From: an uncultured Ignavibacteriaceae bacterium
GTDB lineage: Bacteria; Bacteroidota; Ignavibacteria; Ignavibacteriales; Ignavibacteriaceae
Assembly (NCBI GenBank): GCA_964515875.1
Contig: CAZEWJ010000001.1
Location: forward strand, 88,740 to 152,739
Reading direction: 5' to 3'
Length of the DNA: 64,000 bases
Positions 8,706 to 32,058 of the stretch are shown piece by piece. The translations under genes and the position numbers were made by a program. A model generated the notes under the pieces. The model worked only from the letters and a program-made list of their open reading frames with translations, was not told where the DNA came from and did no database searches. Positions within the stretch are counted from its first letter, which is position 1. Each line of letters opens with the position of its first letter.

Positions 8706-8762
8706 GATAAAAATAACAGTGTTTAATCTCAATAAATTTCTAAGAAATAAATTTGGATAGAT

Positions 8763-11619
<2,857 letters not shown>

Positions 11620-24469: not shown

Positions 24470-24539
24470 GTCAGTCTGAGCGGAGTCGAAGACTGACATT
24501 TTGAAATGCAGTAAACACTTCGACTTCGCTCAGTGTGAC
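24470..24539. repeat. Two inverted copies of a GTCA(g/c)(t/a)CTGAGCG(g/a)AGTCGAAG hairpin unit
   Basis: gtcagtctgagcggagtcgaagactgac (24470-24497) and cacttcgacttcgctcagtgtgac (24516-24539). Confidence 0.7.
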
Positions 24540-24576
24540 AATAATAATTGCTTTTAAGATAACTTTAAGGATTACT

Positions 24577-25215
24577 TTGCTTAAGGTAAATGAAATATAT
24601 TTTTCAATTCAGGGAGAAAGCTCAAAAGCCGGGCTGCCTTGTATTTTTATACGACTCACTTACTGCAACCTACGATGCACTTACTGCGATACTGAATATG
24701 CGTTTTATGAAGGAAAAGATTATACGATTGAAGAGATTCTTAATGAAACAAAAAAATATAATTGCAAACTTGTTGAAGTAACAGGTGGCGAGCCGCTTGT
24801 TCAGGAGGAATGTATTGACCTGATGAAGAGATTATGCGATGAAGGTTATGAAGTTCTGCTTGAAACCGGAGGAAGCTTACCTGTAAAAAATGTTGATACA
24901 AGGGTAATGATTATAATGGATCTTAAATGTCCTTCAAGCGGAATGCTGAAAAAAAACCTTTATGAGAACATTGATTATATAAAATCAACTGATGAGATAA
25001 AGTTTGTGATTGGAAACAGGGAAGATTACGACTGGTCTAAAGAGATAATTGAAAAATATAGCCTCATCGGTAAATGCAGCATTCTCTTTTCTGTTGTATT
25101 TGGTGAGTTGGAGCCAGTGACATTGGTTGAATGGATTTTGGAAGATAAATTAAATGTAAGATTTCAGCTTCAGATGCATAAATTTATCTGGGATCCGGCA
25201 GCTAAAGGTGTCTGA
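24577..25215 (+). CDS. queE: 7-carboxy-7-deazaguanine synthase (radical SAM)
   Basis: EIYFSIQGE and CNLRCTYCD motifs. I prefer TTG at 24577, because the GTG at 24535 lies inside the repeat at 24470-24539. Confidence 0.85.
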   Translation: MLKVNEIYFSIQGESSKAGLPCIFIRLTYCNLRCTYCDTEYAFYEGKDYTIEEILNETKKYNCKLVEVTGGEPLVQEECIDLMKRLCDEGYEVLLETGGSLPVKNVDTRVMIIMDLKCPSSGMLKKNLYENIDYIKSTDEIKFVIGNREDYDWSKEIIEKYSLIGKCSILFSVVFGELEPVTLVEWILEDKLNVRFQLQMHKFIWDPAAKGV

Positions 25216-25628
25216 TGAAGATTGCAAAAGAATTCAGATGGGAAATGGGGCACCGATTACCCGAACATTTTGATAAATGCAAAAGTATTCATGGTCATTC
25301 TTATAAAATGATAATTGAGCTTGAAGGTGAAGTAGATGAATCCGGAATGGTGATGGATTATTATGAAATAAAGAAAATAATTAATCCAATAATTGAAATG
25401 CTCGATCATGCTTTTATGGTTTATAAAGAAGATAAAGAGATAATCTCTTTCCTCAAAAAAATGAAATCAAAAATGGTGGTAGTTGAATTCCAGTCAACAG
25501 TTGAGAATATCTGCAAACATTTTCTTAATGAGATAAAGAAAATCAGCCTGCCGAAAAATATTAAGAAAGTTTCAGTCCGAATTTATGAAACTGTGGATGA
25601 TTATGCTGAGGAATCTATTCAATTATGA
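25215..25628 (+). CDS. queD: 6-carboxy-5,6,7,8-tetrahydropterin synthase
   Basis: FRWEMGHRL, HGHSYKM and LDH motifs. TGATG junction with queE. Confidence 0.85.
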   Translation: MKIAKEFRWEMGHRLPEHFDKCKSIHGHSYKMIIELEGEVDESGMVMDYYEIKKIINPIIEMLDHAFMVYKEDKEIISFLKKMKSKMVVVEFQSTVENICKHFLNEIKKISLPKNIKKVSVRIYETVDDYAEESIQL

Positions 25629-25867
25629 ATGATACAAGTCCCGAAGCAAAAAAAATCCAGGATGAACTATTTGCCAAACTTTCCGGTGAAGAAAGATTAT
25701 TGATGGGGTTGGAAATGTTTGAAACCGCCAGAAAGATTGTACTATCATCATTCCCTGAAAACCTTCCTGAAAATGAAATAAGAAAAAGATTATTCCTTCG
25801 CTTTTATGGAAATGATTTTTCTGATGAGGAAAAAGAAAAGATTATGAAGAGAATGGATGAGATTTAA
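25625..25867 (+). CDS. Conserved-looking hypothetical protein (80 aa)
   Basis: ATGA overlap with queD. Helical. No function recognised. Confidence 0.45.
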   Translation: MNDTSPEAKKIQDELFAKLSGEERLLMGLEMFETARKIVLSSFPENLPENEIRKRLFLRFYGNDFSDEEKEKIMKRMDEI

Positions 25868-26028
25868 TAAGTTTTAACCCAAAATCACGATCTCGATCTC
25901 ACCAGTTTAATATTTTTATAACATTTCCCAATAATCACACATTTATTAAAAATCTTACATATTAAATTTGACTTACATTTATAAATTTTCTAACTTTACA
26001 AACGTTCATAATACATAAGGAGAAAGTT

Positions 26029-26259
26029 ATGGAAGTAGGATATGTGACATCTAAGGGGCAGTTGGTTATACCATCTAAAATGAGAAGAAGATATGGGATA
26101 AAACCGGGCACACGAGTTAATTTTTTTGAAGAAGATGACGGAATTAAAATAATTCCGGTTACTTCAGAAATAATCGAGGCAAATAAAGGATTTATGAAAA
26201 CAGGAGGGAAATTGTTGAAAGCCTTAATGGATGAGAAAAAGAAAGAGCGAGAGCTATGA
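26029..26259 (+). CDS. AbrB/SpoVT-family antitoxin (VapB-like)
   Basis: KGQLVIPSKMRRRYGIKPGTRV swapped-hairpin motif. AAGGAGA Shine-Dalgarno. 4-nt overlap with the PIN gene. Confidence 0.75.
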   Translation: MEVGYVTSKGQLVIPSKMRRRYGIKPGTRVNFFEEDDGIKIIPVTSEIIEANKGFMKTGGKLLKALMDEKKKEREL

Positions 26260-26654
26260 AGAAATATGTATTAGATAGCTACGCACTCCTGGCTTATGCT
26301 GAAAATGAAAAGGGAGCTGACACCGTAGAAGATTTACTTAAAAAGACACTTAATGATCAGGCTGAACTATTTCTCTGTGTAATTAACTGGGGGGAAATGT
26401 ATTACATAGCATTGCGTGAGGGTGGAAAGGATAGAGCAGAGCTATATAAAAATACTTTTGCCCGCTATCCGATAACTATTGTTGAAGCAAATAAAGAACT
26501 TACTCTGCAAGCAGCCCAGTACAAAGCATTTCATAAAATTTCTTATGCAGATGCCTTTGCGGCTGCTCTGGCAAAAATGAAAAAGGCCTTGCTTGTTACC
26601 GGAGACAAAGAGTTTAAAGCTTTGGAATCTGAGGTTAAAATTAGTTGGATTTAA
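26256..26654 (+). CDS. PIN-domain ribonuclease toxin (VapC-like)
   Basis: N-terminal YVLDSYALLAY (Asp), central WGEMYY region and C-terminal YADAFAAALA...LVTGDKEF acidic residues, as is typical of PIN domains. Confidence 0.8.
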   Translation: MKKYVLDSYALLAYAENEKGADTVEDLLKKTLNDQAELFLCVINWGEMYYIALREGGKDRAELYKNTFARYPITIVEANKELTLQAAQYKAFHKISYADAFAAALAKMKKALLVTGDKEFKALESEVKISWI

Positions 26655-26660
26655 AGTTCT

Positions 26661-28892
26661 ATGATATCAACTGATCAGAAAACAGAAATTATTGAATTAA
26701 TTAGAAGCACATACTTTTTTATTGGCAAAGAATCTGGAACCCAACTCAATGAAAATTCTTTATTCGGTAAAATCCCAGTAAATAGGTGTAAATGGCCAGT
26801 AAGATTTGTTCACGCTTTAACAACTTGCAAACAAATTGTATTCCTAAAAGATTTATTGAATACAGATTATGAAGAATTTTTTAAACTGAGTAATTGTGGA
26901 AAGAAAACTATTCATGATGCAAGGCAAACGGTTATTTTTTTTGTGAATAACAATTTTAATGTACTTTTAGATGATAGAAGCGCTGGTGGGGTAGTTTTAG
27001 AGGTGCCGGAATCAAAGGAAAAAGAAATTGTAACAGAAGAGAAATTTCATGGGTCAATTCAGAATAGTGAAGTAAACTCAACATTTAATTTTGTAACAGC
27101 CATTGAGGATTTATTTTCAGAGATTAATAAAAGAGACTTAGAAATTGCATTACAAAGATGGAGTTATGGAAAATTAATTCATTATGCGGAGATTGGGAAA
27201 AAATATAATATAACAAGAGAAAGAGTCAGACAAATTTTATATCAGATAATAAAAAATCTTAAGACTAAATACAGATATTATCTTAATGAGTGGGGACAAT
27301 TGCTTTTGGATAGACTGGTTCAGCAACCAAAACCAATAAATAAAGATATTCTTACAGAGTATAATCTTAAATATTCACCATATCTTTATTTAGGTTTATT
27401 TTCAGAAGTATTTGAAGAGGTTCCGTTCGATAAGTTTATGCCTAAAAGTTTTGAGCAGTTAAATAAACGTAAAATTATTTCTAATCCAAAGTGGGCAAAA
27501 ATAGTAGAAACATTAAATAACATTCCTCCCATGCTTGGACAAATAACACCCTCAAATATAGTCTCTATACTCTCATCAAAAGGATTTAGTCTTTCAGATC
27601 AATTGTTATGTTTTAAAATTATTTTGGGATTAAAAAAGTATTTCTTCTTCGAAGAAGGGACCAATTATTTTTTATTGCGTAGAGGAGGTATTAGAGATAT
27701 TTCTTATACAATTCTTAATAGTAGTGAAATACCCTTGAGTATTGATGAAATTTTAAGTGAAATGCGTAAGTATTACTATGATGGACCAAAATATGACTCA
27801 TTAGGTTCAGTTATTGGCAATATAAAACAGGATGAAAAAATAATACAATTTGATCGGTACAAATTTGGGATTGAGAGACATTTTTCATATTCCAGAGACG
27901 AATGGTTATTAATTTGTTCAATTGCTAAGATATTTTTGTCGGAAATAAAACGACAAAGTTATATTACTGAAATATTAGAAAAAGTATGTACAGACTTTCC
28001 TCTAATAAAATCGAAATATGAGCTGGTATATATTTTAAGAACTGATCCAGAAATAAAGGACCTTGGATTTTTCAATTTCACTCTCACTTCTTTCAATCAA
28101 GAAGAAAGAATAAAAGTAACTGAACTAATAAAAGAAATATTTAATAAAGAACCCAGCATTAAACATTTTCACGAAATAAGCGAGAAATTAAAAGAAAACA
28201 GATATATAAGAGATGAAGGGATTGGAACTTTATTAAGTAATCAAGATTTTCTTGAAAAATATCCTGGTGGATTTTATGGGCTTAAGGAACTTGCTGCCTA
28301 CAACCGAATAGCACTCTCAAAGAGAGAGAAATTTATTTGTTACTTAGTAAGCCAATATTTTTTCCCTAATACGGAAGTAAATAGGGTTCTAAACTATTTT
28401 GATTCGGAAGAGTTAAAACAGAATGCTTCTGACGTAATATATTCTTCAAACACATTATATATATATTCTTCTGATATGAATATTGATATAATATTAAATA
28501 ATAATTGGAGTGTAATTAAAAAGGTTAAATGTTTATTGTTCAATATTGATGAACCAATTTTCGAAGAGCAGTTAAATTGGATGTTAAAGGACTTGGGAAT
28601 AACCGCAGAAAAAAATGACTTTTACAAGATTAGAAATGAAACAACAATTAATTATTCTAATCACAAATATTCTTTTATAAAAACAGAACTTCCTCCCATA
28701 GAGTTAATAACAGTGCTAGATGATTGTTACAATTTTATAAATGATTCAGCTAGCTCTTTTAACTTAAATGAAATGTATGAACTAGTAAAAAATTACGTTT
28801 ATGATGAAATTAATTTTTCTCAATTCATGGTGGCGGTTAAGGAAGACGAAAGGTTTATAGTTACTGATAATAATCTAGTGCTTATTAAATGA
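26661..28892 (+). CDS. Multi-HTH protein: RNAP alpha-CTD-like HhH + sigma-70 region-4 HTH + three or more winged-helix (HARE-HTH-like) repeats
   Basis: aa 46-91 PVRFVHALTTCKQIVFLKDLLNTDYEEFFKLSNCGKKTIHDARQTV compares with the E. coli alpha-CTD. aa 157-201 ...HYAEIGKKYNITRERVRQILYQIIKNLK compares with RpoD 4.2 ([26 protein letters not shown]). There are repeats of about 60 aa downstream. Starts 6 nt after the vapC stop. Confidence 0.7.
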   Translation: MISTDQKTEIIELIRSTYFFIGKESGTQLNENSLFGKIPVNRCKWPVRFVHALTTCKQIVFLKDLLNTDYEEFFKLSNCGKKTIHDARQTVIFFVNNNFNVLLDDRSAGGVVLEVPESKEKEIVTEEKFHGSIQNSEVNSTFNFVTAIEDLFSEINKRDLEIALQRWSYGKLIHYAEIGKKYNITRERVRQILYQIIKNLKTKYRYYLNEWGQLLLDRLVQQPKPINKDILTEYNLKYSPYLYLGLFSEVFEEVPFDKFMPKSFEQLNKRKIISNPKWAKIVETLNNIPPMLGQITPSNIVSILSSKGFSLSDQLLCFKIILGLKKYFFFEEGTNYFLLRRGGIRDISYTILNSSEIPLSIDEILSEMRKYYYDGPKYDSLGSVIGNIKQDEKIIQFDRYKFGIERHFSYSRDEWLLICSIAKIFLSEIKRQSYITEILEKVCTDFPLIKSKYELVYILRTDPEIKDLGFFNFTLTSFNQEERIKVTELIKEIFNKEPSIKHFHEISEKLKENRYIRDEGIGTLLSNQDFLEKYPGGFYGLKELAAYNRIALSKREKFICYLVSQYFFPNTEVNRVLNYFDSEELKQNASDVIYSSNTLYIYSSDMNIDIILNNNWSVIKKVKCLLFNIDEPIFEEQLNWMLKDLGITAEKNDFYKIRNETTINYSNHKYSFIKTELPPIELITVLDDCYNFINDSASSFNLNEMYELVKNYVYDEINFSQFMVAVKEDERFIVTDNNLVLIK

Positions 28893-29476
28893 ACAAAAAA
28901 TTATCAAAGAAAGAAAAAACATTACTTACACTTTATAAAATTTCAAGTGGTAGAAAAAAAACTGTTCATTATGAGGATTTGTTAGTTGAAACATTTCTTT
29001 CTTATAAAAATGATTTTCAATTAAAACTATATCCTAAATATCCCGATTCTGATGTATTTAGATATATTATCTATTTCCAATTAAAGCCTGCTGGCTTAAT
29101 AAGAATAGCAAACAAACAATGTATTCTAACTGATTTAGGAATCAAATTTTCAAAAGAGTTATTAGGTGAGGGAAGAGATAATTATAATGCAGATAGATTA
29201 TTAATTAATCAAGAAATAGAGAGATTAATTAATTTGCAAGGTTTTTTAATGTTCAAAGAAAAAAAACAAGAAAAAATTATAGATCAGGACTTTTTTGATT
29301 TTTTTAAATCAAGTGTGCGTACAAAACCATTAGAATTACTTGGAAATATCAGCCAAATAGAAAGCGAAATTGATGGGTATTCAAAAATGAATAAAAGACT
29401 TTCAAATTTGTTATACGAATATTCGATCTTTTTGAAGAAAAAATTTTTCCATTTATATGAAGGAATAAAAAAATGA
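28889..29476 (+). CDS. Small protein (195 aa) with a putative N-terminal winged helix; unknown function
   Basis: 4-nt overlaps with both neighbours. aa 8-92 look like a wHTH (KEKTLLTLYKIS...VHYEDLLVETF...KPAGLIRIANKQCILTDLG). The rest is helical. Confidence 0.5.
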   Translation: MNKKLSKKEKTLLTLYKISSGRKKTVHYEDLLVETFLSYKNDFQLKLYPKYPDSDVFRYIIYFQLKPAGLIRIANKQCILTDLGIKFSKELLGEGRDNYNADRLLINQEIERLINLQGFLMFKEKKQEKIIDQDFFDFFKSSVRTKPLELLGNISQIESEIDGYSKMNKRLSNLLYEYSIFLKKKFFHLYEGIKK

Positions 29477-31233
29477 GAGTAATAGCTGAGAAACCATACA
29501 TTCATGAAAATGTTTTGGATCTCTTTGGAAAGGAATTTAAGTTTGACCATGCTAAGGGTATTGCAGAATTATTAAAGAATTCAGTTGATGCATACACTTT
29601 AGAAGATATTTCGGACGAAGAACAACAAATTTTCGTCTTGTTTTCTTTACAAAAGGAAAATATTAAGTCAATTGCTGTATTAGATTTTGTAGGGATGACA
29701 AGAAAAAAGATAGATGAAGCATACAAAAGATGGTTTGATCCTTCTGCTTCAAAGATTGATGCTGAAGCAATTAAAAGAGAAAAACAAACATTGGGTGGAC
29801 ATGGAAATGGTGGCAAATTTTATTTACGTGAAATGTTTAAATACTCAAAGATTGTTACTTACAGGAATGGTAAACTTAATGTTTTTGGGTTTGATATAGA
29901 TAAGCAATATGGAATTTACCATGGTTATAATGATATTCAATCTAATATAGATGAAGCTGTAATATCATCAGGTTTAGAGAAATATCCCCATATTTTTAAT
30001 CATATTAAAGAAATTATCATTAAGAAGAAAAAATTTAGTATGGTAATTGGAGAAGAACCAAAATCTGTTCATGGAACAAATAATATTAAAATATTATTTG
30101 ATAAGTTGACTTCACATCCTCAAGCTCGAAGAATTATCCAAAGGAAAAAAGTTTACTATTCAACAAACTATCTTTCAAATCCAATTCAGCTTACAGTACC
30201 AAAATTAACTCCTAAAAAAAACTTTGAAAAACCTTTCTATTTTGTTTGCCCACAAAAGTTGGTTTATGGTGATGAAATTATAATGTATAAAGACCCTTCA
30301 GAACAAATAACATTGATTTTGCATACATCTGAAGAACCATTGAAGGGTTTCAAGTATAAAGGTCTCAACAGTATTGATTTTCTTGGGGAAGTTGGTGTTT
30401 TAGCCAACTATGAGATTCATGAGCTTGGGGATTATTTTAAATCTTTTTTATATAGTGATTTTGTATATGGGGAGTGTTTCTGCCCAATTATGCAAGAAGA
30501 AGATTATGTTCGGAATGATAGAAGCAAATTTTCAGATGGACCAAAGAAAGAAGTATTATTAGAATGGATTCGTAGCTGTATTGAGGATGTTTGTAATAAA
30601 ATGGAAGAACAAGTGAAAAAAGAACACAAACATCTTAACCTTAAGCAAACATCTGAACTTAATAAGTTACTTAATAAGTGGAAAAACAGATTTTTACAAA
30701 AACTCTTAAAAGAAAGATTGGGAGGTGTGGGCAATTTTGGTGTTGATGGTTCTAAAGAAGTAGGATGGAGTGCTTCTGGTAAAGGAACATCTAAAAATAG
30801 AAATGAGAAGAAGGTCGGAGATAGAGGTGGAACAGAAAAGAAAAGAGGGAGTACTTTCCCTGAAGTTTTAATCTCTGGAATAGACAGTGATCCGGAAACT
30901 GGTGAAATTGTTGAATGCGACCCAAGACATAACGCTACATATCAAAGACCCATAGATGTAAAAAGGGGAATTTATTGGATTAATACTTCAAAAAAATTTG
31001 CCCAACAAATATTAGAAAAATTTGGGCCTGACTCTGTTAGATGGCGTGAATATTTATTCCAAAGATATGTGGATATAATAGTAAAAGAATATCTGATAGA
31101 TATTGGGAAAGTTGAGGTCAATCTTACTAGTGATTTCGTTACTAATGAAATTGAAAAGAAGATATCTGAAATTCTGGATAGTGCTGTAGAAGATTTAGAG
31201 AGATTTTTATTTCAAGAGGAATATAATTTGTAA
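29473..31233 (+). CDS. GHKL (Bergerat-fold, MORC/Hsp90-like) ATPase with an unknown C-terminal region
   Basis: N-box AELLKNSVDA (E32, N36, D39). G1-like VLDFVGM. G2-like LGGHGNGGKFY. Gly/Lys-rich linker at aa 416-460. Confidence 0.65.
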   Translation: MRVIAEKPYIHENVLDLFGKEFKFDHAKGIAELLKNSVDAYTLEDISDEEQQIFVLFSLQKENIKSIAVLDFVGMTRKKIDEAYKRWFDPSASKIDAEAIKREKQTLGGHGNGGKFYLREMFKYSKIVTYRNGKLNVFGFDIDKQYGIYHGYNDIQSNIDEAVISSGLEKYPHIFNHIKEIIIKKKKFSMVIGEEPKSVHGTNNIKILFDKLTSHPQARRIIQRKKVYYSTNYLSNPIQLTVPKLTPKKNFEKPFYFVCPQKLVYGDEIIMYKDPSEQITLILHTSEEPLKGFKYKGLNSIDFLGEVGVLANYEIHELGDYFKSFLYSDFVYGECFCPIMQEEDYVRNDRSKFSDGPKKEVLLEWIRSCIEDVCNKMEEQVKKEHKHLNLKQTSELNKLLNKWKNRFLQKLLKERLGGVGNFGVDGSKEVGWSASGKGTSKNRNEKKVGDRGGTEKKRGSTFPEVLISGIDSDPETGEIVECDPRHNATYQRPIDVKRGIYWINTSKKFAQQILEKFGPDSVRWREYLFQRYVDIIVKEYLIDIGKVEVNLTSDFVTNEIEKKISEILDSAVEDLERFLFQEEYNL

Positions 31234-31254
31234 ATTTTCAAGGATTTATACAAA

Positions 31255-32058
31255 CTATTCTTGTTCCTTCACTTTTCCCGAAACAATCTTTTCAACCATT
31301 CCAGGTCTGATCAAATTCAACCATAATAATATTTTTAATTTTTTGGGGATAACAAGTTCTCTTTTTCTGTTTACCATTCCATTAAGAATTTTTCTGCTGC
31401 ATTCCTGAAGACTTATGGATTCTTTGCTATGTTCTTTTTTAGATTCACCGATCTTTTTCCCATTTTTATCGAAAGCATTTTTTCTTAAATCGGTTCCTCT
31501 AAGCCAATGAGGTTTAACCAGCAAAACATCTACGCCTTTATCTTTTATTTCAATTCTTAAAGTGTTCAAAAATCCGGTTAATCCATGTTTGGAAGCAACG
31601 TATCCTGAATGATAAGGAACTGCAATTTCTCCCTGGATAGATGAGATTGCGGTTATCAAACCTTTACTTTTTTTTAAATAAGGGAGAAAAAGGTGCGTTA
31701 GACGAACTGCACTCAGGTAATTTGTTTCAATTAATTTTTGAAACAAAGATAGATCAGTAACTTCTTCAAACTTTGCCCACATACTTATTCCGGCATTAAG
31801 AACTAAGTGATTAATTGAACTAAAATTATTTATTGTTGTTTCAACTAATCTTTTACAATCTTCCGGTTTAGTTACATCTCCCTGAACGGCAATTGCTTTA
31901 GCCCCTTTTTCATTGCAGGATACTACAACTTCATTCAGTTTATCAATGTTCCGGGAAAAGAGAATTAAATTCGGTTTAAAAGATGCAAGTTCATTTGCAA
32001 GAGCAGCACCAAGTCCTGAAGAAGCCCCTGTAATAACAATATTCTTATTTAAAAACAT
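31255..32058 (-). CDS. Short-chain dehydrogenase/reductase (candidate acyl/alkyl-DHAP reductase)
   Basis: ITGASSGLGAALA cofactor motif and catalytic YVASK. Last gene of a four-gene operon. Confidence 0.8.
   Translation of the reverse strand: MFLNKNIVITGASSGLGAALANELASFKPNLILFSRNIDKLNEVVVSCNEKGAKAIAVQGDVTKPEDCKRLVETTINNFSSINHLVLNAGISMWAKFEEVTDLSLFQKLIETNYLSAVRLTHLFLPYLKKSKGLITAISSIQGEIAVPYHSGYVASKHGLTGFLNTLRIEIKDKGVDVLLVKPHWLRGTDLRKNAFDKNGKKIGESKKEHSKESISLQECSRKILNGMVNRKRELVIPKKLKILLWLNLIRPGMVEKIVSGKVKEQE

Follow-up and report, generated by a model that had tools for sequence, protein, structure and literature searches.

What does a bacterial protein do that carries two promoter-recognition modules of RNA polymerase (RNAP), followed by a long array of winged helices, but lacks the parts needed to be a polymerase subunit? 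This question is raised by gene A, an open reading frame (ORF) of 743 aa located at positions 26661–28892 on the + strand of a 64,000-nucleotide stretch of DNA from an uncultured Ignavibacteriaceae bacterium (contig CAZEWJ010000001.1, positions 88,740 to 152,739). This whole stretch is referred to as the window, and all coordinates given for its genes and domains are window positions on the + strand. The ORF translates into exactly the protein quoted in the original prediction, which had been drawn from the DNA letters alone and had recognised in it the alpha C-terminal domain (alpha-CTD) and region 4 of sigma-70. Gene A is followed by gene B (28889–29476, 195 aa, of no known family) and gene C (29473–31233, 586 aa, a predicted ATPase), with B overlapping both A and C by 4 nt. 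We estimate the probability at roughly 0.5 that A is the non-catalytic DNA-recognition or adaptor subunit of an A-B-C module, and that this module represents a family of restriction-modification-like (R-M-like) conflict systems.

The sigma-70 region 4 of A (aa 143–203, 27087–27269) is unambiguous, and it is complete in that both regions 4.1 and 4.2 are present. Pfam Sigma70_r4 (PF04545) matched aa 171–201 with 26.5 bits (gathering score 24.1), while a profile built from 20 homologues of A retrieved region 4 of SigA/RpoD from the PDB with an E-value of 7e-12. Moreover, the AlphaFold2 (AF2) model of A superposed on domain 4 of Staphylococcus aureus sigmaA (4g6d_A) with a template modelling (TM) score of 0.77 and a root-mean-square deviation of 1.7 Å, and BLASTP against region 4 of E. 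coli sigma70 yielded an E-value of 1e-9. The recognition helix TRERVRQI was invariant among the close family and was found in almost every relative across phyla, with residues R186, E187, R188, R190 and Q191 of the region 4.2 helix being invariant.

The alpha-CTD, a helix-hairpin-helix module at aa 38–95 (26772–26945), is weakly assigned from the window protein alone, on which PF03118 scored 14.2 bits (under its cut-off of 23.8), but the assignment is robust at the level of the family. PF03118 matched all 20 homologues (best 2.8e-15), the A-family profile found the Bacillus subtilis alpha-CTD (3gfk_B) in the PDB with an E-value of 4.9e-9, and pairwise BLASTP between A and the E. coli alpha-CTD gave 3e-5. 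Residues R48, G80, K82 and T83 of A are the equivalents of R265, G296, K298 and S299 in the E. coli domain. Both promoter-recognition modules named in the original prediction were thereby borne out. Most homologues of A are longer, at about 810 aa, and possess a second copy of the alpha-CTD, at the place of which the window protein, having a single copy, shows a disordered and acidic linker of 37 aa (aa 105–141, 26973–27083; an alignment gap with predicted local distance difference test (pLDDT) values below 50, and with positions 99–202 of the hidden Markov model (HMM) unmatched). The alignment thus suggests that the window protein has lost its second alpha-CTD. Across the family the number of copies ranges from 0 to 3, with none in L015, L017 and L018, two in most members and three in L029 and L057.

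The remainder of A is accounted for by winged helices. Its AF2 model (mean pLDDT 84.7) displays about seven tandem units of three helices and a beta-hairpin between aa 290 and 743 (27528–28889), and the best whole-chain Foldseek matches were tandem winged-helix proteins, namely UFL1/DDRGK1, the C-terminal region of SelB, TFIIIC tauB and RPC62. The three units of about 60 aa (aa 345–407, 415–477 and 484–543) that had been noticed earlier coincided with winged helices 2, 3 and 4 of this array, so that their proposed fold held. Winged helix 3 (aa 412–478, 27894–28094) is the most conserved block of A (SKYELV...DLGFFNF), with columns S451–V456 invariant in the family alignment. As to the HARE-HTH type that had been proposed for the three units, no such match was detectable in the window protein by itself. 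Orthologues passed the PF05066 gathering score of 25.9 in L032 (42.4 bits), L050 (37.7 bits) and L007 (31.2 bits), and these matches aligned with units 2, 4 and 7 of the window protein. Specifically, PF05066 matched the equivalent of winged helix 2 (aa 344–407, 27690–27881) in L048 and L054, that of winged helix 4 (aa 484–545, 28110–28295) in L050, and that of the C-terminal winged helix 7 (aa 678–743, 28692–28889) in L032 and L007, and we refer to these three units as HARE-HTH-like. Unit 7 was also related to unit 2 by hhalign (E 6.5e-6). Profiles of units 2, 4 and 7 retrieved no HARE-HTH chain from the PDB, and yielded chance matches such as calmodulin.

This composition is typical of the wider family. 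Among 59 diverse relatives of A, the only recurrent domains were Sigma70_r4 (56), RNA_pol_A_CTD (55) and HARE-HTH (16, at E<0.001), and Pfam revealed no enzymatic domain in any of them. An exhaustive profile search among 1.84 billion representatives yielded 147 clusters (50% identity) of A-like proteins at E<=1e-30. In viral structures, Foldseek matched A to phage sigma factors and small winged-helix proteins only, and found no counterpart of its architecture. Like the alpha (RpoA), sigma-70 and delta (RpoE) subunits of RNAP, A has homologous DNA-binding modules in which the DNA-contact residues are kept. Unlike them, it has neither an alpha N-terminal domain (RNA_pol_L and RNA_pol_A_bac) nor sigma regions 1–3: no match to the former, nor to Sigma70_r2 (PF04542), was obtained in the window protein, in the 20 homologues or in the 59 relatives. 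Because these parts are missing, A should be unable to assemble into the polymerase as sigma or alpha, in agreement with the original prediction.

Gene B probably consists of an N-terminal winged helix, which is its conserved half, and a helical C-terminal half. The sole hint that its profile gave in the PDB was the winged-helix protein eS19 (E 0.54), and hhalign indicated no relation between B and unit 2 of A. Gene C, on the other hand, is predicted from its modelled structure to be an ATPase made up of a GHKL domain and an S5-like transducer in a MORC/SMCHD1/Hsp90-like fold. At the sequence level, Pfam HATPase_c_3 reached 22 bits (under its cut-off of 25) and the profile of C matched no PDB sequence. 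The GHKL motifs are nevertheless intact and invariant, comprising ExxxNxxD (E32, N36, D39), DxxGM (D71, G74) and GGHGNGGK (G108–K115), and Foldseek aligned the AF2 model of C (pLDDT 74.4) with the ATPase modules of MORC3, MORC2-DNA, SMCHD1 and Hsp90/TRAP1 over some 420–450 columns, with E-values down to 1e-9 and a probability of 1.0. In this model the GHKL domain (aa ~22–185) is followed by the transducer (~187–340), a helix of 60 aa (357–416), a disordered linker rich in Gly and Lys (417–460) and a conserved C-terminal domain (aa 461–586, 30853–31230). In the latter, D483, R485, Q491, R492, D495, the YWINT motif (501–505), Y527 and F529 are invariant and D473 is also conserved, and neither a PD-(D/E)xK-like pattern nor a nuclease family was found in it. 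C is conserved better than A, given that a relative with a 55% identical C has an A of about 45% identity, and that C is still 43% identical in Verrucomicrobia. When PADLOC, NCBIfam and PHROGs were searched, A was matched only through its sigma region 4, and no models for B or C were found.

The association of these genes proved to be conserved, as the original prediction had required of a functional link between A and its two neighbours. Carriers of the cassette amounted to 184 of 185,579 species representatives (one genome per species), spread over Ignavibacteria/Melioribacter, Verrucomicrobia, Planctomycetes, Acidobacteria, Solirubrobacterales, Nitrospirae, Myxococcota, Elusimicrobia, Clostridia and many lineages of the candidate phyla radiation (CPR), and the A-B-C order recurred within unrelated genomic flanks. 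In an HMM-based census of the 80 best species-representative loci around C, B adjoined C in 75 loci, a protein with sigma region 4 was adjacent in 56 (upstream in 26 and downstream in 30), and a C5 DNA methylase was present within 4.5 kb in 52. More distant homologues of C likewise resided in A-B-C-Dcm operons, in which a C5 cytosine methylase overlapped or abutted C. In L007, a HepT/MNT pair and a type III R-M system lie beside the cassette. Viral contigs, 2.9 million in all, contained just 6 relatives of C, and a phage origin of the cassette was rejected on this count. Some copies are broken: C is interrupted into two or three ORFs in L032, L080, L084 and L088, and A is split into 599 and 378 aa in L008/L009, which suggests decay or frameshifts.

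An HTH-rich protein encoded beside R-M genes is in many cases a controller, and together with the varying position of the sigma-r4 protein, upstream of B and C at some loci and downstream at others, this could indicate that A is a transcription regulator only, which autoregulates the cassette or the methylase and has no direct part in the action of the ATPase. However, at 740–1000 aa, and with an array of seven winged helices and as many as three alpha-CTDs, A-like proteins far exceed any known controller, they are retained at loci that have no methylase, and in the window the 4-nt overlap couples the translation of A to that of B. A purely regulatory role therefore appears to us the least probable of the explanations considered.

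The nature of the third partner was further revealed by loci in which the place of A is taken by another protein. In the CPR/Patescibacteria loci L070, L077, L082 and L083, the gene directly downstream of C combines DnaA domain IV (Bac_DnaA_C, ~70–77 bits) with sigma region 4, and in L082 this protein has an additional alpha-CTD. In Solirubrobacterales, a small protein composed of SeqA_N and Mrr_N, and devoid of sigma region 4, is encoded upstream of B, while a Vsr mismatch endonuclease gene follows the methylase (respectively at 8796–9350 and 12959–13435 of L038, and at 8727–9329 and 12935–13411 of L045). The stable core of the system is thus B plus C, its third partner is a protein consisting of DNA-binding modules only, and its usual fourth member is a C5 methylase. 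Among the modules that occur in the slot of A, HARE-HTH and Mrr_N are known or predicted to read modified DNA. Together, this pattern of a B and C core, a DNA-binding third partner and a usual methylase is that of a modification-linked, R-M-like conflict system.

The same substitutions bear on two further explanations, in both of which the polymerase rather than DNA is central. In the first, A would dock on RNAP, with its sigma region 4 on the beta-flap tip and its HARE-HTH units acting in a delta-like manner, so that A would compete with sigma and either bring B and C to the enzyme or stop transcription. The presence of both regions 4.1 and 4.2 and the union of three RNAP-associated module types in one chain speak for such docking, as does the HARE-HTH fold itself, which is that of the Gram-positive delta subunit. 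Still, the CPR partners that couple sigma region 4 to DnaA domain IV and the Solirubrobacterales partners that have no sigma region 4 at all are better explained by generic DNA binding, and we regard docking as quite unlikely.

The second had been put forward in the original prediction, where A was proposed to be a decoy or a sensor of phage factors. In its integrated form, the alpha-CTD and sigma region 4 (or DnaA domain IV in the CPR) would mimic targets of phage take-over, and a phage factor binding or modifying this bait would activate the ATPase. Indeed, the modules of A copy surfaces that are attacked by phage factors (a complex of phage G1 ORF67 with domain 4 of sigmaA was among the structural matches), they are separated from any domain for polymerase assembly, and their number and identity vary as expected of baits. 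On the other hand, the slot or the protein is shared with Mrr_N and HARE-HTH, which are readers of modified DNA and not known phage targets; the residues conserved in A are those contacting DNA; and the close relatives L015, L017 and L018 retain B and C although their A has no alpha-CTD. Nor would a decoy explain why a methylase and Vsr are linked to the cassette. Because the modules of the slot are interchangeable, the alpha-CTD varies between 0 and 3 copies, and the C5 methylase and Vsr are linked to the cassette, we favour A as a DNA-recognition adaptor over A as an RNAP decoy, which is very unlikely and was not supported in the form originally stated.

If A is such an adaptor, several modules, each weak or semi-specific, would let it bind duplex DNA: the helix-hairpin-helix of the alpha-CTD would contact the minor groove where the DNA is A/T-rich, sigma region 4 would contact a –35-like hexamer, and the HARE-HTH-type winged helices would read the modification state. 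On DNA judged to be foreign, A might then recruit or license the dimeric ATPase C, probably via B, after which C would close around the DNA upon ATP binding, so that the DNA becomes trapped, compacted or blocked, or an effector is switched on. In this scheme, both the loading of C after the DNA has been read and the fate of the target DNA are our inference.

Several observations weigh against A being part of an R-M-like system. The features of a classical R-M system are incomplete here, since no methylase was found in the 64-kb window, nor in the clade to which the window belongs, and neither a nuclease nor any other evident effector domain was recognised by Pfam, PADLOC and NCBIfam in the three proteins. 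With no methylase within 64 kb, self/non-self marking cannot work in the window as it does in ordinary R-M systems. Furthermore, no sigma-r4 protein was seen in 24 of the 80 loci, indicating that A is not universal, and the window protein itself gave no Pfam match to HARE-HTH (PF05066), even at E<10. Gene B had no family match in any library searched (Pfam, PADLOC, NCBIfam and PHROGs), the C-terminal domain of C had no sequence or family match, and all carriers are metagenome-assembled genomes of uncultured organisms. The copy in the window is atypical, and its lineage (Ignavibacteria/Melioribacter-like) on comparison with the other loci appears to be a derived form that has lost both the methylase and the second alpha-CTD.

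In this derived form another gene pair might be involved. The window contains an island of five + strand genes (26029–31233) that starts with a MazE/AbrB-type antitoxin-like gene (26029–26259, 76 aa; its identical counterpart in L096 carries a PF04014 annotation) and a PIN-domain, VapC-like gene (26256–26654, 132 aa; Pfam PIN 2.1e-17), and continues with A, B and C. Three of its four gene junctions are 4-nt overlaps, including the one between the MazE-like and PIN genes, and the remaining junction is a small gap, gene A starting 7 nt after the end of the PIN gene. A PIN gene preceded by an overlapping 76-aa gene for an antitoxin of the AbrB/MazE fold corresponds to the pairing of VapBC modules. 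In the census, a MazE-PIN pair lay directly upstream of the cassette in 12 of the 80 loci, mostly those that have no methylase, and among the fully flanked loci the methylase was absent from 7 of the 10 bearing PIN. PIN occupied the same position in L001, L005, L010–L013, L015–L018, L026, L030, L031 and L035. PIN and HEPN RNases have been reported to border other modification-based systems (PMC10853773), and the pair co-transcribed with A-B-C may provide an RNase effector or may merely be a stabilising or addiction module.

The five-gene block recurs identically on an independent assembly, and its gene structure is therefore not an assembly artefact. The GC content of the window drops to 0.272 at 28001–30000, versus about 0.33 in the surrounding DNA and approximately 0.32–0.35 elsewhere in the window, which is consistent with a horizontally acquired island. 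A scan of 25600–31500 for promoters and terminators gave nothing above shuffled expectation. The island is flanked downstream by a convergent short-chain dehydrogenase gene and upstream, at 24535–25867, by genes for a QueE-like radical-SAM protein and a QueD-like (PTPS) protein and by an ORF of 80 aa. These upstream genes do not accompany the cassette elsewhere and probably belong to ordinary queuosine biosynthesis.

These features also allow another explanation to be judged, in which the cassette is not a defence system but a housekeeping module for epigenetic or chromosome organisation, with a MORC-like clamp being guided by readers of 5-methylcytosine (5mC) and shaping the nucleoid or gene expression. 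Eukaryotic MORCs do act in methylation-linked silencing (PMC2292703), and the lack of a nuclease and the near absence of C from viral contigs would be compatible with such a task. A housekeeping module, however, would not be expected to occur as patchily across phyla as the cassette does, in so small a share of the species representatives, nor to have varying flanks, a low local GC content, toxin-antitoxin and R-M neighbours and pseudogenised copies. Since each of these features is characteristic of mobile defence islands, a housekeeping role seems highly improbable to us, and an R-M-like conflict system with A as its DNA-recognition subunit remains the explanation that we prefer.

A more specific version of silencing is also conceivable. 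Here the cassette would be nuclease-free and gated by methylation, with A reading an UP element and a –35 hexamer on DNA devoid of host 5mC and loading onto it the MORC-like, ATP-driven clamp, by which this DNA would be blocked or compacted. The same cassette would also be a bacterial forerunner of the heterochromatin silencing by which eukaryotes combine MORC, 5mC and HARE-HTH (ASXL-type) proteins. Taken jointly, these two proposals are unlikely, though slightly less so than the alternatives to our preferred explanation. Should the cassette prove to serve defence or epigenetic control at all, it would add a widespread type missing from PADLOC, present in at least 184 species representatives, with a recognition subunit built from the promoter- and origin-recognition modules of the core machinery. 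Moreover, a single bacterial operon would then join a MORC-like ATPase, a C5 methylase and HARE-HTH readers, the eukaryotic counterparts of which cooperate in methylation-linked silencing, so that the proposed bacterial origin of this partnership becomes experimentally testable. For the window itself, an adaptor role of A accounts for an otherwise unannotated island of five genes.

How does this cassette relate to known systems? Aravind and Iyer (2012, Cell Cycle 11:119) reportedly mentioned bacterial proteins joining features of the RNAP alpha subunit and of sigma with HARE-HTH, and we take the gene A family to be, very probably, these same proteins. The three module types of those proteins are the ones found in the A family, of which the window protein is a reduced member with one alpha-CTD and with HARE-HTH units below the detection threshold. 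Documented here are the B-C(-Dcm) cassette, the 0 to 3 copies of the alpha-CTD, and the substitutions by DnaA domain IV and Mrr_N. A literature search joining alpha-CTD, sigma, GHKL and defence found no paper.

The original prediction had also stated that no link to a GHKL ATPase was reported. This was too broad in that GHKL+S5 ATPases of the MORC and paraMORC type were reported in operons with methylases and Vsr in 2008 (Iyer, Abhiman & Aravind; PMC2292703), and that in the mzaABCDE defence system the sigma-like MzaA is accompanied by components similar to MORC-family ATPases (PMC9523054); it stood in that neither report describes the present cassette. Similar to the latter system, which also includes an AIPR-family protein, the cassette encodes a protein bearing sigma region 4 together with a MORC-like ATPase, and MzaA models match A across region 4. 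The resemblance ends there: the NCBIfam model for MzaA (NF041931) scored 29.2 bits on A against a cut-off of 800 and covered aa 126–206 only, the architecture of A differs, and none of the PADLOC models, including those of MzaB–E, matched B or C of the window or of four other clades. Another GHKL protein, VcSduA of Shedu type I-D (paraMORC3), has been validated as anti-phage defence (PMC12137116). VcSduA is a single protein that ends in a DUF4263 nuclease of the PD-(D/E)xK type, whereas C has partner genes and no detectable nuclease.

A close parallel is provided by the MORC and paraMORC systems described in 2008, with which the cassette shares a GHKL plus transducer ATPase with intact motifs and a patchy, apparently mobile distribution, as well as, at many loci but not in the clade of the window, an operon with a C5 methylase and sometimes Vsr. 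It differs from them in having no superfamily II helicase or restriction-fold nuclease (some loci having Vsr or PIN), in the partnership of C with B and a sigma/alpha/HARE-HTH protein, and in the conserved C-terminal domain that is C's own. Judged by its gene content, the cassette would thus appear to be an uncharacterised variant within the known paraMORC-methylase theme.

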